Origin: Thermoanaerobaculia bacterium
GTDB taxonomy: Bacteria > Acidobacteriota > Thermoanaerobaculia > UBA5066
Length of the DNA: 64,000 nt
NCBI GenBank assembly: GCA_963719225.1
Contig: CAVRAY010000001.1
Coordinates: 544,001-608,000, forward strand
Direction: 5' to 3'
The notes beneath the pieces are model-generated. The model ran no database searches, was not told the origin of the DNA, and saw nothing but the letters and a program-made list of their open reading frames with translations. Position numbers and translations under genes: made by a program. Numbering within the stretch: the stretch's first letter is position 1; each line of letters begins with the position of its first letter. Of this stretch, positions 4,565 to 27,435 are shown piece by piece.

Positions 4565-5050
4565 ATGACGAGACGCCGGGGATTCACGCTCATCGAGCTC
4601 CTGATCGTCGTGGCGATCATCGGAATCATCGTCGCGATTGCCGTCGTGAACATGATCAACGCAATTCAGCGCGCGAAGCAGAAGCGCTCGATGGCGGACA
4701 TGAGGAGCCTCGCGACGGCAATCGAGGCGTACGCGACCGATCAGAATTACTATCCGGCCGCGGCCGGTTACACGTTGCCTTCAGGGCTCTCGCTCCCCAC
4801 CGGGACGCTCGGGCCGGTGCCGGACTCGCTCAGCCCGACGTACCTGAGGGTGGTGCCGCTCGTCGACGGGTGGAGCTCCTACTACACGTATGGGACCAGC
4901 ACCTCCCAGACCGACTTCGTGGTGCGCTCGGCCGGTGCCGACGGAGCCCTCGATTCCTCCCCGATTTGGGGCCTGACGACCAACTTCAACGCCGACATCA
5001 TCCTCGTCGACGGGACCTTCGTGCAGTACCCGGAGGGTGCTCAGAAATGA
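4565..5050 (+). CDS. Type IV pilin / GspG-like pseudopilin (paralog 1)
   Basis: RRRG|FTLIELLIVVAII class III signal; C-terminal DGW...Y...SAGADG. Confidence 0.92.
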   Translation: MTRRRGFTLIELLIVVAIIGIIVAIAVVNMINAIQRAKQKRSMADMRSLATAIEAYATDQNYYPAAAGYTLPSGLSLPTGTLGPVPDSLSPTYLRVVPLVDGWSSYYTYGTSTSQTDFVVRSAGADGALDSSPIWGLTTNFNADIILVDGTFVQYPEGAQK

Positions 5051-5224: not shown

Positions 5225-5731
5225 ATGAAGAAGAGGAACAACAAGGGATTCACCCTCATCGAGCTCTTGATCGTCGTGGCCATCATCGGCATCATCGTCG
5301 CCATCGCCATTCCGAACCTGCTCAACGCCATTCAGCGCGCCAAGCAGAAGAGGACGATGGGCGACATGCGGACGGCCGGCACGGCGGCCGAAGCGTACGC
5401 CGTCGATTTCAATCACTACCCGGCAGCCGCCGGCTACACGCTGCCGTCGGCTCTCACGTGGCCTTTCTCAGCCACCTTCGGCGCGCCGGGCTGCGCGGCC
5501 CCCTGCCTCAACGGCCAGGTGACCCCGACGTACGTCCGCCTCCTGCCGCTCACGGACGGCTGGAATTCGTACTTCCTCTATGCAAGCGGCACCCAGAACT
5601 ACGGGCTCGCGTCGAACGGGAAGGATGGCCTGCAGGAAACCCCCCCCTGGACCGAAACGACCAACTTCAACAACGACATCATCTTCGTCGACGGCCAATT
5701 CACCAATTACCCAGCGGGCGCGCAGAACTGA
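5225..5731 (+). CDS. Type IV pilin / GspG-like (paralog 2, probable major pilin)
   Basis: NKG|FTLIELLIVVAIIGIIVAIAIPN; strong RBS and its own terminator. Confidence 0.92.
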   Translation: MKKRNNKGFTLIELLIVVAIIGIIVAIAIPNLLNAIQRAKQKRTMGDMRTAGTAAEAYAVDFNHYPAAAGYTLPSALTWPFSATFGAPGCAAPCLNGQVTPTYVRLLPLTDGWNSYFLYASGTQNYGLASNGKDGLQETPPWTETTNFNNDIIFVDGQFTNYPAGAQN

Positions 5732-5809: not shown

Positions 5810-8101
5810 GTGCAAGGCCGCGGGACGATGGGACGGACGGCGCTCCTGGGCGGCGCCCTGGGACTGGCGTTCGCAAGCCTCCTTCTCGTCCGCTGCATCC
5901 TCACGGGGGGTGTACCGGCTCGAGGCGATCTTGCCGACTTCTTCTGGCCGATGAAGGCATACACCGCCGCGCGATGGCCTTCGGGAGTGCCGCTCTGGAA
6001 TCCCCTTTCGGGCTGCGGTGAGCCCTGGCTCGCGCAGCTTCAAACGGGAGTCTTCAACCCCGGAGACCTGCCGTTTCTGCTTCCGGGTGCCGCTGGCCCT
6101 CTTCTCGGAATCGCGCTCCACCTCGCGATCGCCGCGGCCGGAATGGCGGCCTGGCTATCGGCGCTCGGCACATCGCGCGCGGGCGCTCTCCTCGGGGCCG
6201 GTGTCTTTGCGGGAGGAGGCGCTTTTCTCTCCCTGGGGCTCGTGTACAACAACTTCGAAACGGCCGCCTTCCTGCCCTGGCTGTTCCTGTCGGCGCGGCA
6301 CGCGGCACGCGGCGGCTCGCCCGCAGGGCTCGCCGTCTCCCTCGCCCTCGCGTTTCTGGGCGGCGAGCCGGCCCTGGCCGCCGCCGGCGCGATGGCCGCG
6401 ACGTTCGTCGCGTTCGCAACGCAGCGCGACGAGCCGGGCCCGCCCCCGCGCGGCCTTCGGGGAGGCTCGCGCCTTCTGGGAGGGCTCGTTCTCGGCGCGG
6501 GCCTCACGGCCGCCGCCGCGATTCCGTTCCTGGAATACGCCGTGTCGTCCGGCCGGATCGCGGGCGTGACGAAGAAAGAAGCTCTCGCGCGACCGGTCGG
6601 CGCCTCGGACCTCGTCGACCTCGTCCTTCCGCCCACCGACGCCCTCCTCTTTCGACCGTCGGAAGGCCGTGGGGGATACCTCACGACCCTCGCCCTCTCG
6701 CCGCTCGTCCTCCTTCTCGCGGCGGGGTCGGGCGCAGGGTTCGCGGCCCGTCCCCGCCTCCTCGGCGCGCTGACGATCCTCGGTCTCGCGGGCTTCCTCC
6801 TCGCGCTCGGGGCGCGCGGCGGAATCCTCCCTTTGCTTTGGGACGTGGGGCTCGCGAAGGGCCTTCGGTTCCCCGCGCGCTGGTTCGTCCTGACGCACCT
6901 CGCGCTCTCGGGCCTCGCGGGGGCGGGCCTCGACGGTTGGCTGCACGGACGGGTCTTCGGATGGCCAAAAGGTCGTGCCCCCGAGGAGGGCGCAGACGCG
7001 TCGCCGTCCGCCGTCTCGCGCCTCGCCCCCGTCCTGGTCTTCGGCGCGGCGGCTGCTGCGCTCCTCGGCGCCGGAGCGGTCTCCGGACGTCTGACGGGTC
7101 TTTCCGCCTGGGCGGCGCTCGTCGGAGCGGGAGCCGGCGCTTCTGTTCTGGCGTCCGCGCGCGCCACCGGTCGCCCCGGCGCTTCCCTCGCGGGGCCGTT
7201 CCTCGTGGCGATCGTGACGTTGCCTCTCGTTCCGGCATCGGCGGGACTCTTCGCGCCGACGCCCCTGACGCGACCTCCTTCCGCCGTCGCGGATCTGGGC
7301 CGAACACCGGGCCGCGTGTTCCCGGTGGTCTCGGACGCACCCTTGCTCGCGGCATTGGCGCGTGAAGCCGGCGGAGAATGGGGCGGCGCGTCGGGTGTGC
7401 GCGCGCGTGCCGCTCTCTCCGGCTACACGAACCTCCCGCTCGGGATTTCCTCGGCCGCCTCACCGTCCCCGATCGGAAATCCCCGCTTGACGCGCTTCCT
7501 CGGAGCGGCGCTTTCGGGAGGAGACGTGGAGACCATCCTCGCCCTTGCGGACGTACGGCACGTGGTGTCTCCGTTCCCGACGACCATCCCCGGCCTTCGG
7601 CTCGAACGGCACGAAGCGGGGATCCGCATTTACGCTCTCTCGCGTTCGTTCGGTCGCGTGTTTTTCGCACGCGCGGCCCTTGAAGCGGACGACGATGCGG
7701 CTTTTCGCACGCTTGCCACGCCTCTCTTCGACGCGGAGGCGGTCGTCCTTCTCGCGCCGCCCTCGGGGCCCCTTCCCGCTCCCCGCGCGGGCCGGACGTT
7801 CTCGGTCGCGCGGGTCGTCACGGACGTGCCCGAGGCCCTGGCGGTGGACACGGAGGCCTCCGAGACGGGTTATCTCGTCGTCACGCGCTCGCACGGACCT
7901 GGATGGAAAGCACGCGTGGACGGAACGGAAGTCCCGCTCCGGCGGGCGGATCTCGCTTTCTCGGCCGTGCTCGTGCCCGCGGGTGCGCATCGCATCGAGC
8001 TCTCCTACCGCCCGACCTCGTTCCGAGTCGGCGCGGCTGTCTCCGTGACGTCGCTCGTCATCCTCGCCGGCCTTCTCCTCGCGGGCCAGAGGCCCTCGTG
8101 A
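5810..8101 (+). CDS. YfhO-family polytopic membrane protein (GT-C glycosyltransferase-like)
   Basis: D..FFWP and PLWNP.SGCGEP N-terminus, many TM segments, C-terminal GWKARVDG...VPAGAHRIELSYRP. Start uncertain (5804, 5810 or 5828). Confidence 0.8.
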   Translation: MQGRGTMGRTALLGGALGLAFASLLLVRCILTGGVPARGDLADFFWPMKAYTAARWPSGVPLWNPLSGCGEPWLAQLQTGVFNPGDLPFLLPGAAGPLLGIALHLAIAAAGMAAWLSALGTSRAGALLGAGVFAGGGAFLSLGLVYNNFETAAFLPWLFLSARHAARGGSPAGLAVSLALAFLGGEPALAAAGAMAATFVAFATQRDEPGPPPRGLRGGSRLLGGLVLGAGLTAAAAIPFLEYAVSSGRIAGVTKKEALARPVGASDLVDLVLPPTDALLFRPSEGRGGYLTTLALSPLVLLLAAGSGAGFAARPRLLGALTILGLAGFLLALGARGGILPLLWDVGLAKGLRFPARWFVLTHLALSGLAGAGLDGWLHGRVFGWPKGRAPEEGADASPSAVSRLAPVLVFGAAAAALLGAGAVSGRLTGLSAWAALVGAGAGASVLASARATGRPGASLAGPFLVAIVTLPLVPASAGLFAPTPLTRPPSAVADLGRTPGRVFPVVSDAPLLAALAREAGGEWGGASGVRARAALSGYTNLPLGISSAASPSPIGNPRLTRFLGAALSGGDVETILALADVRHVVSPFPTTIPGLRLERHEAGIRIYALSRSFGRVFFARAALEADDDAAFRTLATPLFDAEAVVLLAPPSGPLPAPRAGRTFSVARVVTDVPEALAVDTEASETGYLVVTRSHGPGWKARVDGTEVPLRRADLAFSAVLVPAGAHRIELSYRPTSFRVGAAVSVTSLVILAGLLLAGQRPS

Positions 8102-9276
8102 ACGCGGCCGATGGCGTCCTTCTGTGCTTCTTCTTCGCGACGGGGGCCGTCGTAGGATCGTTCGCGAACGTCTGCATCCACCGCCTGCCGCGAGGAGCCT
8201 CGGTCGTCCACCCGGGCTCGCACTGTCCGGCCTGTGGCGCCGCCATCGCTTTCTACGACAACGTCCCGCTCGTGTCCTGGCTCGTGCTCCGCGGCCGATG
8301 CCGCGGGTGCGGAGCTCCCATTCGCGTCCGCTACCCGGCCGTCGAGCTGCTCGTCGCGCTCCTTTTCCTCGCCGCGGGTCTCCTCTACGGACCCACGCTC
8401 GTCGCAGCCTCCGCGGCGATTCTCTCGGCAGCGTGCGTGATCCTCGCGGCCACCGATCTCGAGGCGCGCACGCTGCCCGACGAAGTGACGTTCTCGACGC
8501 TCGGGTGCGGGCTGCTTCTTGCGGCGCTTCGCGACCACGCGGCTCGAAGCCCGGATCGTCCTTCCGCCTTCCGCTTCGCGGAGAGCCATTTCTTCGAGGC
8601 GCTGCTGGGAGCGTTCCTGGGAGCGGTTTTTCTGGAAGGTGTGAGGCGCGCCTACGCGAGACTGCGCGGCCAGGAAGGGATGGGCGGCGGCGACGTGAAG
8701 ATGCTCGCGATGGCGGGAGCGTTCACCGGGCCCGCAGGCGTCTTTTTCACGCTCCTTTTCGCGTCTCTCGCGGGCACGGCGCTGGCGGGCGGCGCGGCGG
8801 CCGTACGAGCGCTCAACTGGTCTCTCGAAGCGCGGCGCGCGCGGCGCTCATCCTCCTCGGCCCGTGCGGTTGCCGCGCGAGCCGGACTTCTGGTCGGCGA
8901 GAACGGCCTCGTCCTCGCGGCCTCCGCCCGCTTTCGGGAGATTCCCGGAGCGGCGGCGGAGGGAACCCGGCTCACGGCGGATTTCCCCACGGCCGGGCGC
9001 CTTCTCGCGTTCGTGCGGCTGGCGCGGACGCGGGCGCGGCGCGGGGCGCGAACGGCGCACGGACGCATTGCGCTGGACGACGGGGCGGCTTTTTTCCGGG
9101 TCCTCGCGGCACGCGCCGAGCCGACGCCGGCAGGACTACTCGTCCTCCTCGCCCGTGCCGACGTGCCGTTCGGCGTGTTTCTCGCGTGCGGGGCGCTCGC
9201 GGCTTTCGTGGCCGGTCGCGCGCTCTGGGAAGTGGTGGCCGGAGCCCTGCCGTGGATCCCGAGGCTCCTGCCGTGA
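8098..9276 (+). CDS. pilD: Prepilin peptidase with a ~120-aa insertion
   Basis: GSFANVCIHRLP, CPAC and CRGC Zn motifs, TDLEARTLPD, MGGGDVKM, VPFGVFLA. The GTG start overlaps the upstream stop. Confidence 0.93.
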   Translation: MNAADGVLLCFFFATGAVVGSFANVCIHRLPRGASVVHPGSHCPACGAAIAFYDNVPLVSWLVLRGRCRGCGAPIRVRYPAVELLVALLFLAAGLLYGPTLVAASAAILSAACVILAATDLEARTLPDEVTFSTLGCGLLLAALRDHAARSPDRPSAFRFAESHFFEALLGAFLGAVFLEGVRRAYARLRGQEGMGGGDVKMLAMAGAFTGPAGVFFTLLFASLAGTALAGGAAAVRALNWSLEARRARRSSSSARAVAARAGLLVGENGLVLAASARFREIPGAAAEGTRLTADFPTAGRLLAFVRLARTRARRGARTAHGRIALDDGAAFFRVLAARAEPTPAGLLVLLARADVPFGVFLACGALAAFVAGRALWEVVAGALPWIPRLLP

Positions 9277-11051
9277 CGGATCGCACGTTCGAGCGCGAGG
9301 TCCGCAACGTGATCGTCGGCGGTCTCGCGACGGTGCTTTTTCTCGCCGGGACCGCGGTCGTCGTCCTCCGGAACACCGTGGCATGGGGAGTGAGCGAAAA
9401 CCTGCGCCGCCTGACGGGGGAGACCGACGTCCTCGCGAACCGAATCGGCTCGGCACCCGACCCCGAGACGGCGCTCGTGTCTGATCCCCTCGTGGCACGC
9501 CTTCTCCGCGACGCGAACGCGCGCAGCGCCGCGATTTACGACGCGCAGGGTCGGCGCGTCGCCGATGCGCCCTTCCTCCCGGACGCGGGACTCGCGCCCG
9601 TGGCGGTGACACCGGCGGGAGGGCTGCCTTCTCTCCAGCCTCTCGTCGACGCGGCCGGCGGCGCTTCCCCCTCCATCACCGTTGCCCTTCCCGACGCGAC
9701 CCGAATGCTGCGGATCGTCTGGGACGGCACGTCGATCGCCGAAGCGCGCCGGAACGCCCGCATCCTCTCGATCGCGGTGCCCGCGGCCGCATTCGTCCTC
9801 GTCCTCCTCGTCGTGCCGTTCCTGAGGCGTCTCCTCGAACCGATCGACGCGCTCACTCAGGCCGCTCGGGGGGCCGGCGGGCTCGTCCCGGCCGTGCGTG
9901 CCGGCGGCGACGAAGCCGAGACGGCGATCGCGACGTTCCAACGGACGGTCGAGGAGCTGAAAAAACGCACCGCCGAGCTGGAAGGGCTCCGCAGCTCCGA
10001 AAAGCGGCGCGCCGACATCCTCGCGGTCACGGCCGACACTCTCGTGAGGTCGCATCCCGGCGGGCTCCTCGTCGTGGACGCCGCAGGCCGCCTGACGCAG
10101 GCGAACGTTCCGGCCCGCGAGCTCCTCGGTCTCTCCGAGGAGAGTCTCGGCTCCGCGGCCGCGGAAGCCGCGCTCGACGCGGTGCCCGCGATCCGAGAGG
10201 CGGCGCAGAGCGCTCGGGCCGGCACGCCGACGCTGTCGAAGGAGCTCGCGTTCGGAGAGGGAACCGACGCCCGCCTCGTCGAGCTCACGGCGGTCCCGAT
10301 CCTGGATTCCTCGAAGGCGGTCCTGGGCGTGCTCCTCTTCCTCGAGGACCGGACGACGACGAGGCGCCTCGAGCGCGAGCTGTCGTCCCGCCGCGAGCTG
10401 GCGGCGCTCGGCGAGATGTCGGCGGGAATCGCGCACGAGTTCCGGAACGCGACGGGAACGATCCTCGGGTGGGCGCGTCTCGCCGCGAAGACGGAGGATG
10501 CCGCTTCCCGGGCCCGCCAGCTCGAGGCGATCCAGGCGGAGGCCGAGCACGTCGCGCGCGTGACGGGCGATTTTCTCTTCTTCGGCCGGCCCGAGCGGCT
10601 CGAGGCGGGGCCGTGCGACCTGCGCGCCCTCGCGCTCGAGATCGCCGACGAGCAGCGTGCGCTGACGCCAGGCGTCGTGGTCGAGGTGATCGGAACGTTT
10701 TCCCCGGCGTTCGCCGACGCCGCTCTCGTTCGCCGCGCGCTCGTGAACCTCGTGAAGAACGCGTGCGAGGCCGCGGCGGCGGGCCCGCGCGCGGGGCGCG
10801 TGGCGCTGCGCGGCGAAGGCGAAGCGGCCGGGTTCGTCAGGATCGCCGTCGAGGACGACGGCTCAGGCGTGCCCGACGAGGCGGCGGCAAAGCTCTTCGT
10901 TCCGTTCTTCTCGACGAAGGACACGGGGACGGGGCTCGGCCTCGCCATGGTCGCGAAGATCGTCGCGCTCCACGCCGGCACGATCTCGGTGGGGCGCTCG
11001 TCGGGCCTCTCGGGGGCGCGGTTCGCGCTCGAGTTCCCCGCCGTGCCCTGA
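9273..11051 (+). CDS. Membrane sensor histidine kinase (HAMP-PAS-HisKA-HATPase), PilS/NtrB-like
   Basis: Two TM segments, PAS core GLLVVDAAGRLTQAN, H-box AHEFRN, N-box NLVKNA, DDGSG, PFFSTK, GTGLGL. Confidence 0.9.
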   Translation: MTDRTFEREVRNVIVGGLATVLFLAGTAVVVLRNTVAWGVSENLRRLTGETDVLANRIGSAPDPETALVSDPLVARLLRDANARSAAIYDAQGRRVADAPFLPDAGLAPVAVTPAGGLPSLQPLVDAAGGASPSITVALPDATRMLRIVWDGTSIAEARRNARILSIAVPAAAFVLVLLVVPFLRRLLEPIDALTQAARGAGGLVPAVRAGGDEAETAIATFQRTVEELKKRTAELEGLRSSEKRRADILAVTADTLVRSHPGGLLVVDAAGRLTQANVPARELLGLSEESLGSAAAEAALDAVPAIREAAQSARAGTPTLSKELAFGEGTDARLVELTAVPILDSSKAVLGVLLFLEDRTTTRRLERELSSRRELAALGEMSAGIAHEFRNATGTILGWARLAAKTEDAASRARQLEAIQAEAEHVARVTGDFLFFGRPERLEAGPCDLRALALEIADEQRALTPGVVVEVIGTFSPAFADAALVRRALVNLVKNACEAAAAGPRAGRVALRGEGEAAGFVRIAVEDDGSGVPDEAAAKLFVPFFSTKDTGTGLGLAMVAKIVALHAGTISVGRSSGLSGARFALEFPAVP

Positions 11052-11062
11052 ACGCGCCCGAC

Positions 11063-12202
11063 TCAGCCGGCGGCGGCGGAAGCGGCGGGCCGCGCGGCCG
11101 CCGTCTTCCTCTTCTCCACGAGGGCCTTGAACGCTTCCTTGTCGAGCGCCTTCTCGAGCGCGTCGTCCGGGTCCACCGTCGCCGCCACGACGAGGTCGGC
11201 GAGATACTGGTCCATCCCGATCATCCCGGCGTTGCGGCCCGTCTGGATGAGCGTCGTGATCATGTTCGTCTTTCCCTCGCGGATGCTGTTCGAGAGCGCG
11301 GAGGATCCGCGGAGCACCTCGAAAGCGGGAGCGCGGCCGCCCCCCTTCTTCTTCAGGAGAACCTGGGCGACGACGGCTTTCAGCACCTCGGCGAGGACGG
11401 TACGAGTCTGCTCCTGCTCCTCGGCAGGGAAGCTGTCGATGAGGCGGTCCACGGCCTTCGACGCCGAGTTCGTGTGGAGCGTCCCGAAGACGAGGAGTCC
11501 CGTCTCGGCCGCCTGAAGAGCCATCGACATCGTCTCGAGGTCGCGGAGCTCGCCGACGAGAACGACGTCCGGGTCTTCCCGGAGCGCCGCCTTCAGCGCG
11601 CCGGCGAACGTCGGCGTGTCGAAACCGAGCTCGCGGTGCGAGATCAGCGACTTCTGCGGCACGTGGAGGAACTCGACGGGATCCTCGATCGTCACGATGT
11701 GCGAAGCGCGGGTCCGGTTGATCCAGTCGAGAAGGGCCGCGAGGGTCGTGGACTTTCCCGAGCCCGTCGGGCCGGTCACGAGGACGAGGCCCCGCGGGAC
11801 GCGGGCGACGTTCGAGACGATCGGGGGCAGCCCCAGCTCCTCGATCCCGAGGACCTTCGGCGGGATCATGCGCAGGACCGCCCCCGATCCGTGCTCCTGG
11901 CGAAAGAGATTGACGCGGAAGCGCGCGATCTTGCCCATCGCGTAGGCGAAGTCGGCATCGCCCGTCTCCTGCCAGTCCTTGAAAGGCTTCTCGGGAGCGA
12001 TCGGCGCGATGAGGCTCTCGTATTCTTCCTCGGTCAGCGTGCGCCACTTGAGCCTCTGGAGATCCCCGTCCACGCGGACGATCGGCGGCGATCCCACGGC
12101 GAGATGGAGATCCGAGGCTTTCTTGTCGACGACGATCCTGAGGAGCGTGTCGATCCGGTTGATCCCCATGTCCGAGGGGGCGGGCGCGGCCGGCTTCGTC
12201 AT
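11063..12202 (-). CDS. pilT: PilT/PilU-family retraction ATPase
   Basis: ASDLHL, GPTGSGKSTT, TIEDPVE, EDPDVVLVGELRD, GTLHT. Start MTKPAAP overlaps the upstream stop. Confidence 0.92.
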   Translation of the reverse strand: MTKPAAPAPSDMGINRIDTLLRIVVDKKASDLHLAVGSPPIVRVDGDLQRLKWRTLTEEEYESLIAPIAPEKPFKDWQETGDADFAYAMGKIARFRVNLFRQEHGSGAVLRMIPPKVLGIEELGLPPIVSNVARVPRGLVLVTGPTGSGKSTTLAALLDWINRTRASHIVTIEDPVEFLHVPQKSLISHRELGFDTPTFAGALKAALREDPDVVLVGELRDLETMSMALQAAETGLLVFGTLHTNSASKAVDRLIDSFPAEEQEQTRTVLAEVLKAVVAQVLLKKKGGGRAPAFEVLRGSSALSNSIREGKTNMITTLIQTGRNAGMIGMDQYLADLVVAATVDPDDALEKALDKEAFKALVEKRKTAAARPAASAAAG

Positions 12203-14724
12203 TCGAGGGCCTGCTTCTCGTCGGCGATGAGCTTCTCGAAAGGCTCCTTCTTGAGCGCTTTCTCGACGGCGATCTCGGGGTCGACCTTCCCGTCCTCGCA
12301 GAGCTTCTGGAGCGACTGGTCCATGGTCATCATGCCGGCCATCTGGCCCGTCTGGAGCTGGGACGGGAGCTGATGCGTCTTGCCTTCTCGAATCAGCGAC
12401 GCCACCGCTGCGGTCGAGCGGAGGATCTCGAAGGCGGCGACGCGACCCGCGAATCCTCGACGCGGAAGGAGGACCTGGGAGACGACCGCCTTCAGCGAAT
12501 CCGAGAGCATCACGCGCACCTGTCCCTGCTGCCCGGCGGGGAACGAGCTGATGATACGGTCGATCGTCGCGGGCGCGTTCGTCGTGTGAAGGGTGCCGAG
12601 CACGAGGTGGCCCGTCTCCGAGGCCGTGATCGCGAGCGCGATCGTCTCGAGATCGCGCATTTCGCCCACGAGGATGACGTCCGGGTCCTCGCGAAGGGCC
12701 GCCTTGAGCGCCCGCGCGAACGAGGCCGTGTGGTGAGGAACCTGGCGCTGGTTCACCATCGCTTCCTTGTTCGGGTGGACGAACTCCACGGGATCCTCGA
12801 CCGTGATGATGTGGCAGGGACGCGTCTCGTTGATGCGGTCGATCAGCGCGGCGAGCGTCGTGGACTTTCCGCATCCGGACGAGCCCGTCACGAGGACGAG
12901 GCCCTGCGAAAACTTGAGGACGTCCGACAGGGACGGGGGAAGTCCGATCTCCTCGATCGTCGGAATGGTCTTCGGCACGAGCCGGAAGCAGGCGTCGAAC
13001 CCCCCGCGCTGGGAGTAGAAGTTCGCGCGGAAGCGCCCAAGCCCCGGGAGCTTCAGGCAGACGTCGATCTGCCTTTCGCGCTCGAGCCGCTTCCACTCGG
13101 TCTCGTCGAGCACTTCCCGGATGAGCTGGGTGGCGCGCGCACGCGTCATCGGCGGCGCGTCCACCGGCTCGAGCATGCCCTGCATCCGACGGTGCGGGAC
13201 GAATCCGGTCGCGAGATGGAGGTCCGAGGCTCCGCGCTGGACCATGTCGGCCAGGTACTCGACGAGCCGCGCGTTCTGGTTGCCGGCCAGCTCGACGGTG
13301 GCCACTTCCTGCTCGATCTCGGGGAGGGCGTCGCGCGCGTCGTCGCCCATGAGCCTGCCGACGAGGCGGCGGGCCCGCTCCCTCACCGCCTGGTCGAGCT
13401 GCGCCATCTGGACGACCCTCGAGCAGATCGTGACGACCTGCTGCTGGACGCGCGCCTCGGCCACGGCGAGCTTTCCCATCGCGTCGAGGATCTCCATCTG
13501 GACGTCGGGACGCGTGACGGCGCCCTTGAACGCGTCGAGAAGCGGCTGCGCGGCGCGTGCGTCGGCGAGCTCCCCGAGCGCGGAGGCCGCCGCGATGACG
13601 ACCTCGGGATCCTTGAGAGCCTGGAGGAGGCGCGCGAGGACCTGATCGTTTCCCTGTCCGGTTCGCCCCAGCGTCTCGATGGCGCGCGTCCTCACCCAGA
13701 GGTCGGGATCGTCGACGAGCTTGATCCACACGGGAAGAGCCTTGGCGTCATTGAGCGCGAGCGTCATCTCCGAAGCGGCCTTCGCGAACGCGGGATCCGC
13801 GTCCCTCGTGAGCAGGAGAAGGGCGTTCACGAAGCCGGGGAGGCCGTCCCGGGCGGCCTCGACGGCGCGGTCCCTCACCCAGACGAAGGCGCCGCGGAAG
13901 TGCTCGAGGATCCGGCGCGCGAGGAGCTCCGGTGCGTAGGGCATGAGGAGGTTCACGGCGCCGTGTCGCACGATGGCGTTCCCGTCCGCAAGAAGGGGAA
14001 CGATCTCGGGCGTGTGGTCCTGCTTGGCCGTCGTGAGGAGTCGCTTGAGGGCCGAGAAAGACGCTTCCGCCACGCGTCCTCCGCCCGTCCGCGCCATCTG
14101 GAGGACGTCGGGGAAGTAGCTCTCGTTCGGGTTCTTCTCGAGGACCGCGAGGGCCGAGTAGCGGATCTCCTCGTTCTCGTCCTGAAGCAGCGGGACGGCG
14201 AGGCTCGCCGCCACGGCCGCGCTGCCCTCGAACGTCATCTCGCCCACCGCTTTGAGGGCGCGCGCGCGCACGGCGGGATTGGACGCGGTGAGCACGCGGC
14301 GCGCGATGTCGAACGACGCTTCGGCGGGAAGCTCTTTGGCGAGCTCGAGGGCGGCGAGACGGGCGAAGTCGTCCCCCCGCGATCCGATCTCCTGCAGGAA
14401 CGGCCCGAGCTGCGGACCCGCGAGCTCCTTGAGGAAACGCATGACGGCGCGCCGCACGGCTTCCGAACGCGTCTTCAGGAGCGGAACGAGCGCCTCGAGG
14501 CCGGCACGATCGCGCCGCCGCCTGAGAATGGCGAGGCCTGCCGCCCGGATCTCGGGAATCGGCTCGAGCGCCGTCCAGACGAGCCACTCGACGTCCGGCT
14601 TGGTGATGGCGTAGAACTTCTCGAGGAGCTCTCTCTTTTGCTCCTCGCTCGTCCACTTGTGTTCCCGAAGCTGGGCGACGACGGCAGGCTCCGACCGCAG
14701 GCCGCGCAGCTTCTCGAGAACCAT
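12199..14724 (-). CDS. HEAT-repeat-PilT ATPase fusion
   Basis: About 480 aa of HEAT-like repeats, then ASDLHL, GSSGCGKSTT, EDPDVILVGEMRD, TGHLVLGTLH. GGAGAGG RBS before the ATG at 14724. Confidence 0.9.
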   Translation of the reverse strand: MVLEKLRGLRSEPAVVAQLREHKWTSEEQKRELLEKFYAITKPDVEWLVWTALEPIPEIRAAGLAILRRRRDRAGLEALVPLLKTRSEAVRRAVMRFLKELAGPQLGPFLQEIGSRGDDFARLAALELAKELPAEASFDIARRVLTASNPAVRARALKAVGEMTFEGSAAVAASLAVPLLQDENEEIRYSALAVLEKNPNESYFPDVLQMARTGGGRVAEASFSALKRLLTTAKQDHTPEIVPLLADGNAIVRHGAVNLLMPYAPELLARRILEHFRGAFVWVRDRAVEAARDGLPGFVNALLLLTRDADPAFAKAASEMTLALNDAKALPVWIKLVDDPDLWVRTRAIETLGRTGQGNDQVLARLLQALKDPEVVIAAASALGELADARAAQPLLDAFKGAVTRPDVQMEILDAMGKLAVAEARVQQQVVTICSRVVQMAQLDQAVRERARRLVGRLMGDDARDALPEIEQEVATVELAGNQNARLVEYLADMVQRGASDLHLATGFVPHRRMQGMLEPVDAPPMTRARATQLIREVLDETEWKRLERERQIDVCLKLPGLGRFRANFYSQRGGFDACFRLVPKTIPTIEEIGLPPSLSDVLKFSQGLVLVTGSSGCGKSTTLAALIDRINETRPCHIITVEDPVEFVHPNKEAMVNQRQVPHHTASFARALKAALREDPDVILVGEMRDLETIALAITASETGHLVLGTLHTTNAPATIDRIISSFPAGQQGQVRVMLSDSLKAVVSQVLLPRRGFAGRVAAFEILRSTAAVASLIREGKTHQLPSQLQTGQMAGMMTMDQSLQKLCEDGKVDPEIAVEKALKKEPFEKLIADEKQALE

Positions 14725-14813
14725 CAGCCCCTCTCCATGGTCCGCTATCGTAGCTCGCGCGCAGCGGGCTGCGCCCGCGCCCGGAGAAGGGGCGCGCGAG
14801 CATCTGCCATTTC

Positions 14814-14842
14814 GCAGGGAAACCCCGCCCGGGTTTCCCTGC
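14814..14842. repeat. Perfect 12-bp inverted repeat in the divergent intergenic region
   Basis: GCAGGGAAACCC-CGCCC-GGGTTTCCCTGC. Confidence 0.85.
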
Positions 14843-15033
14843 ACCTTTCCTCGCGCCGGAGACACGTTTGATTACCCGCCGTTCGGTGTCGGTGCTCGCC
14901 GGGAATCGTCCGCCACCGGTCAGCGTGTGTTACGAAATGTGTCGATTCGATCGACGCATTCGCTCTGGACCTGAGGGGGGACTACGGGTATAAGATCCCT
15001 GCCACGAGTCGTTTGGCTGTCAGAATCGGATTG

Positions 15034-15049: not shown

Positions 15050-15067
15050 TTGGAAAGGCGGATCTCC

Positions 15068-15845
15068 ATGATGAGCGTTACGCTTCCGCTTGCCAGTCCC
15101 CCTCACCCGGCGCCCTCGCGTTCCGCGAGAGGATCGAGAGGATCGAGAGGATTCAGCCTCGTCGAGATGCTCGCGGTCGTCGCGATCCTAGGGATCATCG
15201 CCATCCTCGGCGGAGGCGAGATCTCCGAGGGCCTGGAAGCGCCAGAAGGTGCAGAGCGCCTCCACCGACATCAAGGTCCTGCTGCAGAGGGCGCTCCCGG
15301 AGATGCAGCGCCGGAACATGCGCACGTTCATCCAGGTCGGTCCCTTCACCACCGCGGGCGGGGCGCAGTGGATGCCGATATTCCTCGTGGGCGACGCGGA
15401 TGGGGACGGCGTCCTCTCCTGCTTCGCGAATCCGCCGACAGTGGCGTGTCCGGACCTCCTCATCTCGCAATACGACATCATCGTGGTGGGCAAGACCGGC
15501 ACGAAGGGGACGACGGGCGTGGACCAGGAGTTCAGCCTCTCCGACCTTGGCTTGAACCAGGTCGCGTCCACGCTCTGGTCGGACAACACGACGAACTGGC
15601 TCAATCCGCGCGTCCTCATGTGCGACTTCCAGGGGCGTGCCATCGACGTCCTGACGGGCCGGCAGATCGCAGGTCCCGCGACGATCGTTCTCACGCACGT
15701 GAACGTCGTCACCGGGGGCCTGAACCCCCTGACGCGTTACGTGATCAGCGTCAACCCGGTCTGGAGCGTCCGCGTCGCGAAGCAGACCACGGCGGGCCCG
15801 TTCCCGATCACGGCGGCGAACGTGTGGATGACCCAAAATGGCTGA
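15068..15845 (+). CDS. FimT/GspH-like minor pilin (one frameshift near 15227)
   Basis: RG|FSLVEMLAVVAILGII in one frame; removing one base continues as ISRAWKRQKVQSASTDIK into the 15249 ORF. Confidence 0.8.
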
Positions 15846-16392
15846 GCGCGGCGCCCGGCGCGCGCGCCGGACCGGCGCATCCTCCCGTCGTGGCAGCAGC
15901 TTCGTCGAAGTGCTTCTCGCCATGACCATCATGGCCCTCGTGCTCGTGGGCATCCTCCAGATGTTCTCGGTTTCGCTTCTGATCAACAAGGGTGCCGCGG
16001 CGCGCACGCAGATGCTCTTCAAGTGCCAGCAGGTCGTCGAGAACATCCGCTGGTATTACTACGTGACGTCGCACAGCCTCGCGACGCCGCTCACGACGGG
16101 CATCCCTGCGCTGGGCGCGACCACGGTGAACCTGCCGTACGACGGGACAGAGGCCGAATACCCTTACTGGGGTCCGACCGGAGCGAACGTGATCGAGAGG
16201 CCCAACGGCCCGTACAAGATCAGCTACACGATCGTCAACGACGCGGCGCAGACGCTGAACAGCGGCGTCAACGTCTGGGTGATCACGGTTTCCGCGGTGC
16301 CGACGGACGTCGCCGGCGCCACGCGCTACCTGGGAATCGGCACGAACGGCGGCGGCAAGAGAGTGGACTATGTGGCGCAATTCACGCAGTAA
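15838..16392 (+). CDS. PilV-like minor pilin
   Basis: RRG|SSFVEVLLAMTIMAL with E5; position in the cluster. Confidence 0.8.
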   Translation: MAERGARRARRTGASSRRGSSFVEVLLAMTIMALVLVGILQMFSVSLLINKGAAARTQMLFKCQQVVENIRWYYYVTSHSLATPLTTGIPALGATTVNLPYDGTEAEYPYWGPTGANVIERPNGPYKISYTIVNDAAQTLNSGVNVWVITVSAVPTDVAGATRYLGIGTNGGGKRVDYVAQFTQ

Positions 16393-18423: not shown

Positions 18424-21400
18424 ATGACGAAACCTCGCCGCCCCTTCACCCTTCCGATCACCGTGAGGAAGGCGTGCGCCTTCCTGCTTCTCTTCGCGAT
18501 GATCTTCGGCGGAGCGGGGACCCTCCAGGGGGCGACGAGAACCGAAGGGTTGGACCCCCTTCGCCAGATCACCGCACAGCTCCTCCGCGCGAACCTCCTC
18601 ATCCTCCAGGACGTCAGCGGCTCGATGCGGTGGGACGTGCACGCCCACTCCCTCATCGAAGACGAGGATTCCGTCGGCCGGCTCGTCTGGAGCGTCACGT
18701 GCCTCGACGGGAACCCCGGCCCGACGCCGACGCCCACCGTCACGCCGACCGAGACGCCGACGCAGACCCCCACGATCACACCGACCTCCACGGAAACGGC
18801 GACCCCCACGCCAACCCCGACGTCGACGCCGACCGAGACGTCCACGCCGACGTTCACGCCGACTCTCACGCAGACACCGACGGAGACGCCGACCCCCACC
18901 CCGACGTTCACGCCGACCGTGACGCCGACCTCGACGGTCACGCCCACGCTGACACCCTCGGGAACGCCGACGTTCACGCCGACGGTGACGCCGACCTGGA
19001 CGGCCTCGAACACGCCCACCGTGACACCGACCAGTACGCTCACGGGGACGCCGACGAATACCCCGACCGTGACGCCGACGAGCACGCCGTCGCGGACGCC
19101 GACGATCACACGGACGCCCACGCGGACGCCCACGGTTACCCGGACGCCCACGATCACGCGGACGCCGACGCGGACCCCCACCAGAACGAGGACGCCGACG
19201 CGGACGCCCACGAACACGCCGTCGCGGACGCCGTCGCGGACCCCCACGCCCACGAACACGCCCACGGCGCTGCCGACGGGGACGCCGACGAACACGCCGA
19301 CGGCGACGCCGACGGGAACGCCCACGAATACGCCCACCGTGACCCCCACGGGGACGCCGACGGGCACGCCGACGGTGACGCCGACGCCCACGAACACGCC
19401 CACGGTCACTCCGACCTCGACGGTGACGCAGACGCCGACGGTCACCCGGACGCCGACGCGCACGCCCACACCGACGGTCACGCCGACGTTGACGCCGACC
19501 CCGACCGTCACGCCGACGGGAACACCGACGAGGACGCCGACGATCACGCCCACGTCGACGATCACGCCGACCGTGACGCCGACGAATACGCCCTCGTTCA
19601 CGCCGACGCGCACGCCGACGCTGACGCCGACGCCGACGCGGACTCCGACGTTGACGCCGACCGTCACGCCGACCGGCACTCCGACGTCGACGCCGACGCC
19701 GACGACGACGCCGTCGAGTACGCCAACGCGGACGCCCACCTTCACCGAGACGCCGACGGCCACGCCCACGACCACGCCGACGCGGACTCCGACGGTCAAG
19801 ATCAACGAGCTCGGGGTTCCGAGAAACCCGCTCGTGAAGCCGGACGATCGCCAGCCGGTCCAGGCCGCGGCGGGACGGCATGGCCTGCCTGAGCCGGTCG
19901 CGCTCGTCGCGTGGAACGGATCGCGTCCGGGGCCCAGGAACCTGGCTTCGGATTCCGACTCGTTCGAGACCCTTCTCCCGCGCGAGCCTCATGGAGTCTC
20001 GATGGGCATCGCAGCTCTCATGGCCGCCGCCACGCCCACTCCCACGCCGATCGCGGCCGGCCTCGGATGCCACCGCTGGCGCTACGCGCTCCGGTGGGAG
20101 GAGCCCTCGCGCCTCGCGATCCTCAAGAACGTCCTGGGCAATTCCGTGACGACGTACACGGACTACAAGGCGCCCGGGAACGGGGACCAGGACGACTGGC
20201 CGGATCCGATCGCCCACAGCGAAATCCCGAACGCATGGAGATATACGGCCCCCTCACAGCCGACGGTGGGAATCTACGATCACGACTGTGGAGTCGGGCT
20301 GCCGGCCTGTGCGGCGCCGACCGCGACGGACGTCGAAGGCGAGCGGCCGGGAATCTACTACTCGAAGGGAACCTGGAACTGGCCCGACCCGAACTCGCCG
20401 TTCCTGTCCTCCGCATACGACTCGGCGCATCCTCCGATCTACCACCCGGGCGCCGATACGACGGGGTCGCTCATTTACGAGGATGCCCCGGTAGACCTCT
20501 TTGGGAATCCGCTCCCGCCGACGGTCTTCCTGGCCGCGCCGTATGGAACCGCCGGGACGTACGACGGCTGGGCCTGGACGTTGAACTACGGCTACGGGCC
20601 CGCTCCGAACAACGACATCGTCTACGGTCCCGATCCCGGTCCGCCCCTGACGCTCATGGACGAGACGACGGACAATTCATGCGGACTGGGATGCGGGAAC
20701 TCCATCCCGCAAGTGACGGGTACACCACTCTCCTTCCCGTCGACGTGGACGACCCGAGGAGGGGGCCTCCTCGGGGCGCAGACGCAGACATCGAAGCCGA
20801 ACGATCCGGCCGTGACCCTGTTCGCCGGCACCAACCAGCCCTCCTGGACCGTGAACCTCCACCGCGATGTCGTGGGCACGACGAAAGACGTCGTGAACTG
20901 GGGCCTCATGACGTACTACAGTCTCGGCACAACCCCCGCAAGCGCGGTTTATGACCCAAAAGTGACTGTCACGACCATCGACACTGGTCCCGGAGACGTT
21001 ACGGCCATCGAGGGCTTCATGCGCCTGAGGTACTCCAACTCGATGCCGTATCCGGGCCTCGCGGTGAACGGCGGGACGCCCACGAAGGGTGCTATCGGCG
21101 CCGCGGATTCCTCCCTCAACGCGACGTGGGACCTGGACCCGAAGAAGGCGTGCAACCGGGCCTACGGAATCATCATGTGCACGGACGGCCAGTCGAACGT
21201 CACCAACACGGGCAGCCTGCCGGATTCCTTCTGGGACTCGACGACGACGCCGTGCGCCCCGGACGTCAACGGGCTCGACTTCGACAAGTTCCCACCGGGC
21301 GCCGCGGAGCTCGCGTACCTGAACGCGCACCAGGCGGGGCCGGGCGACGCCGTCATCCGCACGCGGACGTTCGCGATCGGAATCTCGTCCGACATCTCGC

Positions 21401-23826
21401 GGTGCGAGCTGAACCGCACCGCCTACCGCGGCCGCACGGATGCGAACGCGAAGAAGAGGGACGCCGGGTTCGTCCTCTACGATCCGACTGACCCGCCGGT
21501 CCTGCGCGGGGACGTCCGCTTGCCGCACATCAACCCCGCTCCCGATATCGCTGGGACGACGGTTCCTACGAACGAGAGCGGACCGGGAAGCCCGCCTGCG
21601 CCGAACCGGTTCGGTCCGGACCAGACTCCTGCGGACAACAGGGACTACGCTTTCTTCGCGAGCGACGCCCGCGCCCTCTTCGACGCCTTCCTCGCGATCG
21701 TGCGAGGCTCGGCGAGCGGCGACTACACGACGAGCGCCCCCGTCTCGGGCGCGGCCGTCAGCCTCGGGAACACGGTCGTCCTGACCTCGGCGACGTACCC
21801 GCTCTGGCAGGGCCACATCTATGCGAAGGACACGACGAACCCGCTCGCGATCGTCGATCTCTGGGATGCGGGAGACGTCCTGAAGAACCCGTCTCAGCCA
21901 TGGCATCCGACGCCCGCGAACCGGGAGCTCTATACGTGGGATCCGGTCACGGGCACCCTGATCCCGATCATCGCGGGCAATGCCGGGACCATCGACGCCC
22001 TGTGCGGCGGCTGCGGGATCACGGCCACTGTCGTCGATTTCATGCGTGGAATCGACACGCGGGTTCAGATTTTTGACGATACCCTGAAGACGTGGGTGGC
22101 CAATCCAAATTTTGGACTTCCGCGCAACTGGCTCCTGGGCCCGTCCATCAACGTGACGCCCGCGATCGTGGGCGCCGCGCAGCAGTACTTCCAGGCGGGC
22201 AACGTCCAGAACCACAAGCCTTTCGAGGCGGCGTATGCGACGCGGCGTGCGATCGCGTGGCTCGGCGCCGACGACGGGTTCCTGCACGCATTCGATTTCG
22301 GGGACAAGACCAACCCGGGGGACGGCGCCGAGGTGCTCGGCCTCCTGCCGCCGAACCAGATCGCGAACCAGGTCACGCTCTACAACACCTTCCTCGATCC
22401 GGACCCGCAGATCTCGACGGACACGGGGCAGAACGCCGGCTTCCTGTTCGAGGAGCACACCTGGGGCATCGCGAGCTCCCTGAGGTTCGCGGACGTGTGG
22501 TTCGGCGCTCCGACGAACGCCTACAAGACGGTCGGATTCCTCACCGAGGGACCGGGAGGCGACCTCATCGCGGCGATCGACATCACGCACCCCTATGGGA
22601 ATCTGCTGGCGAGGCCGTCCGTCTCGCCGGACCCGAACTACGGCTCGTTCATCGGCCCGAACGCGGGGAGGCCGGTCGACATCCTCTGGACGAAGAGCTC
22701 GGCGGACTACGCCGGCCTCTTCGGCTCCTGGAGCGTCCCGGCCGTCGCGAACGACACGTTCTCGACGAGCAAGATGACGTTCGGCGCCGGCATCAACCCG
22801 ACGAGCCTCTACAACGCGCAGCAGGACGCGAACGTCTTCGTCGTCGATCCGGTGGACGGCACGCTCCAGTCGACGACCGTGGTCGCGCCCCAGGCGGTGC
22901 CGGCCCCGCTCGTCGGCCACCAGACGTTCACCGATTCGATCCTCTTCCAGACGAACGCCCCGGGCTTCCAGAACGACAACCTGGCGAATCTCTCGCTCCA
23001 GGGCGACACGAACGGCCGCGTCAACGCGCTCTTCGGGAACTGGTCGGCTCCGACCCCGAGCGTCCTCATCGACCTCAACGCCGCCGTGGGAGGCTTCCCG
23101 CAGCCGCTCTACTATTCGCCCGCCGCGAACGGAATCGGAACGCTCGGCTTCCAGGTCTACGCTCTCGCGAGCGGCAGCTTCTACGAGACGAGCCCGGCCG
23201 TCTCGGGGTGGAACGTGAACCGGATCGGACCCCCTCCCGTCTCCGCGCCCCCGTCTCCGAGCGACTATCCCAGCACGCTCCCCGTCTTCACTCCGACGCT
23301 TTTCGTCGCGACGAACCCGTACAAGATCACCGATCCCCTCTTCGGCACGACGCCGCTCGGTTCGGGAGCCCTGGCGCCGCACGTCATCAGCAAGGTCATC
23401 GGCGGCGAGAGCACCGGAATTCCGCTCCAGGTGACCGATCCGACATACGTGGCGGGTATCCATACGCGTCTCGGCATCCACACGCAGGTCACCTCGTCGC
23501 CGCTTCTCGTCGGGAACGTGACGTCGTCGAAACAGCACGTCTTCTTCACCGTCTTCGATCCCGACTACGGCTGCAACGGGTACTCGTACGTCATCGACGT
23601 CGAGTTCACGATCTCGGCGGGAGCCCCGCCGGCCTTCAGCGCGACGACTGTCTACGCCGCCGGCGCGGGAGCCGCGTCCGGGTTCGTCGTGACCGAGAAC
23701 GGCGCGTTCATCGGACAGAGCGGCGTCGGAAAGAACGAGGCGACGCTCATCCAGGTCAACATACCGAAACCTTCCCTGCCTGGCGCGCCGCACTTCCAAC
23801 CCACGTGGTGGAACCAGAAGAGCTAA
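18424..23826 (+). CDS. PilY1-like tip adhesin (vWA + Thr-Pro tract + beta-propeller)
   Basis: Signal peptide; MIDAS elements DVSGSM, GGTPT and CTDGQSN; NWGLMTY; [11 protein letters not shown]; follows PilX. Confidence 0.85.
18721..19797 (+). repeat. Low-complexity (TPTx)n coding repeat, ~359 codons
   Basis: Continuous ACG-CCG-ACN-NNN units encoding TPTx. Confidence 0.97.
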
Positions 23827-26073: not shown

Positions 26074-27435
26074 ATGGCCGCGGAGATCCTGCTCGTCGAA
26101 GACCGCGAGTCTCTCCGCGCGATGCTCGCGGAGACGTTGACACGAGAGGGCTACAGCGTCGAGGCCGTGGCGACCGGCGAAGAGGCGCTGCGCCGTCTCG
26201 CCGAAGGGCGCCGCTACACGCTCGTCCTCACGGACTTCAAGATGCCGGGCGCCGACGGCCTCGCCGTCCTTCGGGCGGCGACGGCGTCCGACGCCGCCAT
26301 GCCCGTCGTCGTCCTCACCGGGTTCGGAACCGTCGAAACGGCGGTCACGGCCATGAAGATGGGGGCGGCCGACTTCCTCAGCAAGCCGGTAGACCCCGAC
26401 CTCCTTCTCCTCCTCGTGGCGCGACACGTGCGCGCCCGGCGCTCGGCGGTCGCGCACTCTCTTCTCGCCGCCGAAGCGGGCCTCGCGGGAATGCCCGAGA
26501 TCGTGGGCACGTCTCAGGCGCTTGCCGAGGCCCTCGAACGGATCCGGGCGGCCGCCGCGTCGGACGTCACCGTCCTCCTGACGGGCGAGTCCGGCACCGG
26601 CAAGGAGCTGTTCGCCCGGGCCATGCACGCGCTCTCGCCACGGGCGCCGGGACCGTTCGTCGCCGTCAACGTCGCCGCCCTGCCTGAGAGCCTGGTCGAA
26701 AACGAGCTCTTCGGGCACGAGCGGGGCGCGTACACCGGCGCGAGCGAGCGGCGTGCGGGGCGTTTCGAGCTCGCCGACGGGGGCACGCTTTTTCTCGACG
26801 AGATCGGCGAGCTGCCACCCGCGGCCCAGGCCAAGTTCCTCAGGGCCGTGGAGGAGCGGACGTTTCTTCGCGTGGGCGGCACGGTGCCGATCGCGGTCGA
26901 CGTGCGGATCGTCACGGCCACGAACCGCGAGCTCGCCTCTCTCGTCAAGTCGGGGGCGTTCCGGGAGGACCTCTTTTATCGCCTCGACGTCTTCCCGGTG
27001 CGCCTGCCCCCGCTGCGCGCCCGGAAGGACGACATTCCGGCGCTCGCGAGCGTTTTCGCGGCCTCGGCGGCCCGCCAGGTCAAGAAGAAGACGCCGTCGT
27101 TCTCGCCCGCCGCGCTCGAGCGGCTCCAGGCGCACGACTGGCCGGGCAACGTGCGGGAGCTTCGAAACGTCATCGAGCGGGCCGTCCTCCTCGCGGCGGG
27201 AGAGGTCATCCGGCCGGCGGACGTCGTCGTGGGCGTTCCGGGCGAGACACAGCCGCGGTATCCCTCGCTCGACGGGACGCTCGAAGACACCGCGGAAAGG
27301 TGGCGGCGCGCGGGGGAGTCGGCGCGGATCCGGCGTTCGCTCGAGGCCACGGGAGGGGACAAAGCCCGTTCCGCCGAGGACCTCGGCGTGCCCCTCCGAA
27401 AGCTCGCGCAGAGGATGAAGGAGCTGGGAATCTGA
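26074..27435 (+). CDS. Sigma-54-dependent response regulator (PilR/NtrC/AtoC family)
   Basis: REC domain, GESGTGKE, ELFGHERGAYTGA, LFLDEIGE, WPGNVREL, C-terminal HTH. Confidence 0.95.
   Translation: MAAEILLVEDRESLRAMLAETLTREGYSVEAVATGEEALRRLAEGRRYTLVLTDFKMPGADGLAVLRAATASDAAMPVVVLTGFGTVETAVTAMKMGAADFLSKPVDPDLLLLLVARHVRARRSAVAHSLLAAEAGLAGMPEIVGTSQALAEALERIRAAAASDVTVLLTGESGTGKELFARAMHALSPRAPGPFVAVNVAALPESLVENELFGHERGAYTGASERRAGRFELADGGTLFLDEIGELPPAAQAKFLRAVEERTFLRVGGTVPIAVDVRIVTATNRELASLVKSGAFREDLFYRLDVFPVRLPPLRARKDDIPALASVFAASAARQVKKKTPSFSPAALERLQAHDWPGNVRELRNVIERAVLLAAGEVIRPADVVVGVPGETQPRYPSLDGTLEDTAERWRRAGESARIRRSLEATGGDKARSAEDLGVPLRKLAQRMKELGI

Follow-up and report, generated by a model that had tools for sequence, protein, structure and literature searches.

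A prepilin peptidase with a predicted PAS-type domain inserted ahead of its PFG motif in one family of Thermoanaerobaculia

Prepilin peptidases of the PilD type (PF06750 plus PF01478) are described in PMC10191384 as proteins of eight transmembrane helices (TMs) with small cytoplasmic loops that work on their own, and their processing of prepilins is there called poorly understood. The active site of PilD faces the cytoplasm, as stated in PMC10191384 and PMC3584216. In Pseudomonas aeruginosa, PMC13170266 reports that slowed PilD leads to an accumulation of prepilin and that pilA expression is then shut via PilS. Enzymes that process prepilins are regarded as self-sufficient, with a housekeeping role. 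Here, we describe a pilD gene of a Thermoanaerobaculia bacterium whose product departs from this layout; the window, that is, the whole stretch of DNA analyzed, is 64,000 nucleotides long, and the features of interest are collected in Table 1.

The pilD product resembles ordinary PilD in its four-cysteine domain, its two aspartates with the GxGD motif, its PFG motif, and its eight predicted membrane helices. Pfam assigned A24_N_bact to residues 15–93 (PF06750, 116.8 bits) and Peptidase_A24 to residues 108–230 (PF01478, 67.3 bits against a cut-off of 26.5), the latter being the sole Peptidase_A24 match in the genome. Across 40 insert-bearing PilD sequences, the catalytic D120 and D199 are both intact in every row, and C43, C46, C68, and C71 are present in 39, the remaining row being gapped there. 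As in known PilD systems, ordinary-looking prepilin substrates occur in the genome, and no unusual leader that could be the reason for the insert was evident in 12 pattern matches, some of which are false. Cleavage and methylation of class III signal peptides by this protein are putative, as indicated indirectly by the sole A24 match and the prepilin-like genes.

What sets this protein apart from ordinary PilD is its last loop, which spans approximately 121 residues instead of about 11 and holds a predicted folded domain. The original prediction placed an insertion of about 120 residues here, and 8800–9162 is indeed a run of 121 stop-free residues inside the ORF 8098–9276; the insertion is real, and only its size had to be corrected to a net length of about 111 residues, because the earlier span takes in approximately 10 residues of normal loop. 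An alignment of the 40 insert-bearing sequences with 41 ordinary PilD sequences placed it as one clean block at approximately residues 245–355. The distance from the Asp of GxGD to PFG is 159 residues, as against 44–49 in ordinary PilD; among 80 related loci, it was 158–159 residues in 11 and 44–49 in 66, while PFG was unmatched in 3. At each end, pilD overlaps its neighbor by GTGA, namely the YfhO-like gene upstream and the kinase gene downstream. The G+C content continues smoothly through the region, and the same frame and length recur in dozens of independent genomes, with an identical frame in every complete relative, so that a frameshift or assembly artifact was ruled out. It is confirmed that pilD carries an insertion of approximately 111 residues in its last loop, just ahead of the PFG motif.

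Table 1. Positions of the peptidase and kinase features in the window.
Feature	Position	Strand	Remarks
pilD, type IV prepilin peptidase / N-methyltransferase with insertion	8098..9276	+	ORF, 392 aa
A24 N-terminal (four-Cys, methylase) domain	8140..8376	+	residues 15–93, Pfam
First catalytic Asp, D120	8455..8457	+	alignment, 40/40
Second catalytic Asp, D199 of GxGD	8692..8694	+	alignment, 40/40
Predicted cytoplasmic TM7 extension and second helix, into PAS core	8797..8883	+	residues 234–262
Predicted PAS-fold core	8884..9162	+	residues 263–355; AF2 model, structural matches, conservation
V-P-F-G motif and last transmembrane helix	9163..9219	+	immediately after last PAS strand
Sensor histidine kinase, 592 aa	9273..11051	+	Pfam PAS, HisKA, HATPase_c; 4-base overlap with pilD
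Kinase PAS domain	10038..10367	+	residues 256–365; best genome match to insert

The idea that the insert is PAS-like was borne out by structure prediction. AlphaFold2 (AF2), run on the insert with a 35-row alignment, gave a model with a pLDDT of 93.1 and a pTM of 0.87, and the same insert elements were kept in the model of full-length PilD (pLDDT 93.2, pTM 0.89). Two leading helices come first; after them stand the first two of five strands, which are separated from the other three by a short helix, a loop, and a long helix. The strand order is that of PAS, with helices after strand 2 and before strand 3. In the full-length model, TM7 runs on as a helix to residue 248. The modeled core then comprises strands at 263–266 and 271–275, a helix at 277–280, the WREIPG loop, an Arg-rich helix at 297–314, and strands at 319–327, 333–343, and 346–353, ending in R-x-D. 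Of the PAS helices named C, D, E, and F, the D and E helices are absent from the model, in which this span holds only the helices 277–280 and 297–314. The insert is predicted to be a reduced PAS fold without the D and E helices.

The top Foldseek matches of the insert are PAS domains (3luq, probability 1.00, TM score 0.55), with non-significant E-values, the best of which was 0.0095. VIA-align was run against 48,161 chains, and all 50 matches listed are PAS, Cache, or PDC chains with Z between 8.8 and 6.0, including 3fc7 (Z 8.2, rmsd 2.8, 87 aligned) and 3a0v (Z 7.7, rmsd 2.3, 81 aligned); a Z near 8 is middling by the tool's own scale, and the uniformity of the match list is the stronger point. 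The ESM Atlas assigned the window's insert to PAS clusters at 0.93–0.95, and for a divergent member (P0010) it gave no named or PAS match, the best being an unnamed one at 0.81. Neither a disordered nor a non-PAS prediction was obtained. At the sequence level, the curated Pfam models PAS, PAS_4, PAS_8, and PAS_9 matched 0 of 35 inserts at E ≤ 1, searches of Pfam, NCBIfam, and the PDB with the insert or PilD returned no PAS match, and the PDB search returned no solved relative of this PilD. An iterative profile started from the genome's own PAS domains likewise failed to pick up the insert within 4 rounds. The insert would be a clean example of a PAS fold missed by Pfam, if the model is right.

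The best match of the full-length model was archaeal FlaK/ArlK (PDB 3s0x; Z 11.9, rmsd 4.1, 161 aligned, model residues 100–382), which together with the AF2 helices points to the multi-pass helical GxGD fold for this PilD; PAS and Cache chains followed, over approximately residues 224–364. The aligned ranges suggest that FlaK, too, is extended in the stretch from GxGD to the last helix, by what we take to be its soluble beta-domain. Unlike the window's PilD, FlaK is without the methylase domain; the two share 14% identity, and FlaK is not among the 50 VIA-align matches listed for the insert alone. Cytoplasmic kinase PAS domains (3luq, 3fc7, 3a0v, and the neighboring PAS_4) share the strand-strand-helix...helix-strand-strand-strand topology of the insert with Z of 7.3–8.2, and the insert ends in an Asp at the place of the usual terminal PAS motif, D-I-T. 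It differs from them in the missing D and E helices, the lack of a Pfam match, and its net positive charge (mean +9 versus −2.6 for 59 PAS domains of the genome). It also sits between two TMs of a protease and not ahead of a kinase or cyclase. Extracytoplasmic Cache/PDC domains (6dtm, 6pzj, 4ywz) tied for the top VIA-align scores (Z 8.2–8.8), which is ascribed to the length of the leading helix and to the TM-helix-PAS-TM arrangement. Unlike those domains, the insert probably lies on the membrane's cytoplasmic side: the loop that holds it carries at least one Arg or Lys in 62 of 62 ordinary PilD proteins, which under the positive-inside rule places it on the active-site side. A periplasmic Cache sensor was rejected in view of this loop charge and of the lack of a match to the periplasmic domain of the kinase (hhalign E 0.25).

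The distribution of the insert was examined in 400 other Thermoanaerobaculia genomes, 38 of the window's family and 362 of other families, with an insert profile built from 35 rows; two genomes flagged as unpublished (G004 and G175) enter these tallies only. The profile matched 35 of the 38 family genomes (33 at E ≤ 1e-33 and 2 partially), and the remaining three comprise two without any pilD match and one with a weak pilD match only. The insert is thus conserved in close homologs, and its absence from such relatives was not observed. A pilD match was found in 342 of the 362 other-family genomes, in which the insert profile gave only 11 weak matches (E 1.8e-4 to 0.0095). Nine weak-match loci were checked (8 of these 11 and a second match in one family genome); ordinary PAS domains account for two of them and the rest are non-PAS by profile, and no real copy of the insert was found in the 362 class genomes outside the family. 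The phylum sample (n = 401) added two weak matches only, the better of which is neither PAS nor PilD. The named relatives are Thermoanaerobaculia MAGs.

Among 1.84 billion representatives, the profile found 12 matches, of which 11 are PilD or PilD fragments and the twelfth is a repeat protein that is not related. A24 is present in 62 of 63 insert homologs from the 90%-identity database, and the remaining one looks chimeric; among the homologs found, the insert is never free-standing. Databases label these proteins plain prepilin peptidases. Five longer PilD fusions were singletons, and the three examined resemble frameshift read-throughs. In a quick tree calculated without the insert region (85 rows, including a random 25 of the 54 other Acidobacteriota rows), the 39 insert-bearing PilD sequences form one clade with an SH-aLRT of 99 and a stem of 0.58, and a single change suffices for the presence of the insert. 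None of the complete family genes that were examined has lost the insert. The insert was gained once, in one Thermoanaerobaculia family.

Within 10 close genomes, the insert core (263–355) has an identity of 0.83 and a dN/dS of 0.16, compared with 0.84 and 0.18 for the Cys domain, 0.81 and 0.25 for the A24 core, and 0.77 and 0.31 for the kinase PAS domain. This core is under purifying selection. Over 32 family genomes, the respective values are 0.60 and 0.38 for the insert core versus 0.64 and 0.37 for A24, and the leading helices are loose (0.43 and 0.73); R237 and W241 are conserved in the leading segment 234–262, the rest of which is variable and shortened in some members. R237, P283, G284, G289, A304, R307, R312, R323, F333, and R353 are invariant in 34 of 34 sequences, and D327, R334, and D355 are kept in 32–33 of them. 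The peptidase itself also differs in the insert clade, in a way that suggests co-adaptation: A23, T119, R124, E129, R145, and D146 are fixed there while being rare or absent in 21 other Thermoanaerobaculia. Three of these stand beside D120, namely T119 (97%), R124 (100%), and E129 (100%), with frequencies of 0–10% in those 21; residues of the R124/E129 type occur in 12–15% of other Acidobacteriota PilD proteins without the insert. No His, Cys, or Met at any position from 250 to 355 reaches 10 of the 40 insert-bearing sequences. The suggestion that the insert is sensory finds no backing here as far as classic cofactors are concerned, as no such residue is conserved and the model is without the D and E helices.

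We propose, with a probability of roughly 45%, that the insert is a putative cofactor-less protein-interaction domain or allosteric cap that tunes prepilin cleavage. The lack of cofactor ligands and the reduced pocket make contact with protein or membrane more likely than small-molecule sensing. The peptidase's cytoplasmic face is the likely docking site of the insert, which is predicted to take a defined position on the enzyme, and the charged residues fixed next to D120 may contact it, as their sequence pattern suggests. The last PAS strand, ending in R-x-D, runs straight into V-P-F-G and the last TM and may pass movement to the active site. Provided that PFG has the role of the PAL motif of presenilin and lines the active site, movement of the insert would reach the catalytic cleft.

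The conservation of the insert fits a structural role equally well as regulation. A duplicated PAS domain may have come to rest in a tolerant loop, the peptidase having adapted to it, and may be kept for folding, stability, or membrane anchoring with no regulatory input. The need of the sole A24 peptidase to stay folded could alone give purifying selection, a cationic surface with a net charge of +9 would bind anionic lipids, and the top structural match, FlaK, also appears from its aligned ranges to be longer in the part from GxGD to the last helix. What speaks against such a passenger is that the core is at least as conserved as the catalytic domain, charged residues included (R307, R312, R323, and R353 in 34 of 34), and that no complete family gene examined has lost the insert; we regard a purely structural role as somewhat unlikely.

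The gene behind pilD encodes a sensor histidine kinase for which two TMs and a HAMP-like stretch were read by eye, and the H-box His and Glu are invariant in 48 sequences. The overlap of the two genes, pointed out in the original prediction, is real (GTGA at 9273–9276), and it occurs in 31 of 31 complete family loci listed. In 24 insert-less loci, mostly from Thermoanaerobaculia, the kinase gene adjoins pilD in 19 and overlaps it by ATGA or GTGA in 8, and the kinase is also found downstream of pilD in many more distant Acidobacteriota loci. In some of the latter (locus L024, 5750–7018, and similar ones), the kinase behind pilD is without a periplasmic domain and has a single N-terminal TM, a form that would suit intramembrane sensing. 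Since adjacency and overlap exist in insert-less relatives, the pilD-kinase arrangement predates the insert; translational coupling therefore says nothing about the insert, and the argument that had been drawn from it for a link between insert and kinase falls away.

The proposed resemblance of the insert to the PAS domain of this kinase was not found in pairwise comparison (BLASTP, best E 1.1) but is seen at the profile level, where it is weak and above controls. An insert profile ranked the kinase PAS first among the 59 PAS domains of the genome (15.2 bits versus 7.8 for the next), and in a global profile alignment, the two stay colinear over the whole stretch that begins with the first strand and ends at the terminal Asp. 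With hhalign, the insert matched PAS templates at E of 5e-4 to 2e-2; its score with the kinase PAS was 27.7 versus a maximum of 23.0 in 60 block shuffles. All 60 shuffles were beaten for two of five templates, the kinase profiles of genus g1 and of insert-less Thermoanaerobaculia, and not for the other three. A profile built from other genera only gave a mean of 9.5 bits for the genus g1 kinase PAS, 0.4 for other PAS domains of the genome, and 1.7 for the kinases of its own genera; a derivation from the neighbor is suggested mostly by the genus g1 kinases (mean 9.5–13 bits versus 1.5–1.7 for the other genera of the family). Because the kinase PAS is the best match among the 59, the insert may be its duplicate, and we consider it rather probable, from these profile comparisons, that the insert arose by copying the PAS domain of the adjacent kinase and then diverged.

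Paralogous PAS domains can heterodimerize, and the insert might bind the adjacent kinase by a PAS-PAS or PAS-HAMP contact and thereby couple pilin processing to a PilS/PilR-like circuit. Like PilS-PilR of P. aeruginosa, the kinase is an intact sensor (HisKA, HATPase_c, PAS) at a pilin locus. Its own PAS is the closest one to the insert in the genome, the genes overlap throughout the family loci listed, and 15 kb farther downstream, past the minor-pilin cluster, a sigma-54 NtrC-type regulator is encoded. The feedback of slower PilD on pilA via PilS would also agree with such a contact, but according to PMC13170266 it runs through accumulated membrane prepilin and needs no PilD-kinase contact, whereas the kinase of the window has two TMs and a periplasmic domain. 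In addition, the side-by-side position and the overlap, seen in 19 and 8 of 24 insert-less relatives, respectively, are older than the insert, the kinase PAS stands behind the HAMP-like stretch and a coiled coil and is probably farther from the membrane than the insert, and a search for sigma-54 −24/−12 motifs that tolerated one mismatch gave none at the pilin genes. We consider docking on the kinase unlikely. A peptidase tuned by an allosteric cap could influence the neighboring kinase without touching it, since in P. aeruginosa slow PilD acts through prepilin accumulation, upon which PilS shuts pilA. A more ambitious scheme, in which a PAS domain copied from the adjacent kinase, with its last strand wired into PFG, would gate pilin cleavage in a signal-regulated peptidase and also dock on the kinase, so that maturation and pilin expression would be controlled in one membrane complex, appears unlikely. 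A ligand sensor, in which the PAS pocket would bind a small anionic molecule or nucleotide and switch peptidase activity, is quite unlikely. The cleft that separates the sheet from the helices is a common site of ligand binding in PAS domains (PMC8534201), and the insert has several invariant Arg residues and the conserved WREIPG loop. On the other hand, no His, Cys, or Met that could serve the binding of heme, flavin-adduct, Fe-S, or coumarate is conserved in it, the model has neither the D nor the E helix, which usually form the walls of the pocket, and the Arg enrichment is partly compositional (70% GC DNA).

A PAS-containing prepilin peptidase was not found in the literature searched, which took in listings and the beginnings of abstracts and included a minority of subscription journals. 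The insert-bearing protein appears to be new as a form of PilD, with a fold that is well predicted by the models. As the only PilD of the family, with a predicted PAS-type module that probably lies on the catalytic side and was possibly born from the neighboring gene, it would be a natural candidate for control of the pilus at the maturation step. Structural studies of PilD might also make use of the predicted soluble insert as a handle.

Several further observations concern the peptidase and its surroundings. Insert-bearing PilD proteins have a longer TM4-TM5 loop starting with R-D (8530–8592, +) and a conserved C-terminal LLP tail (9220–9273, +), both absent from sister-family PilD and both probably periplasmic. 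Upstream, two tandem pilin/pseudopilin genes (4565–5050 and 5225–5731, +) carry N_methyl and T2SSG with ordinary basic leaders, and a terminator-like hairpin lies 3' of the second. Between these genes and pilD, a 765-aa YfhO-like membrane protein (PF09586; 5804–8101, +) with weak matches to PgfM glycosyltransferase is encoded; its gene, which has the GTGA overlap with pilD, is syntenic in the family and sister families. Downstream, tandem PilT/PilU-family ATPase genes (12199–14865 and approximately 11063–12200, both −) converge on the kinase gene, and the former encodes approximately 500 extra N-terminal residues with weak HEAT-like matches, conserved in sister families. A minor pilin-like gene follows at 15050–15845 (+), with its class III signal in one frame and a plausible body in another (ORFs 15050–15925 and 15249–15845), a split that is probably a sequencing frameshift. 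The sigma-54 NtrC-type response regulator after the minor-pilin cluster (26074–27435, +) is a candidate partner of the orphan kinase, to which its receiver domain is the closest one. An 1800-aa protein labeled PilY1-like by eye, with a long Pro-Thr repeat tract, is encoded after the minor pilin genes at 18424–23826 (+).
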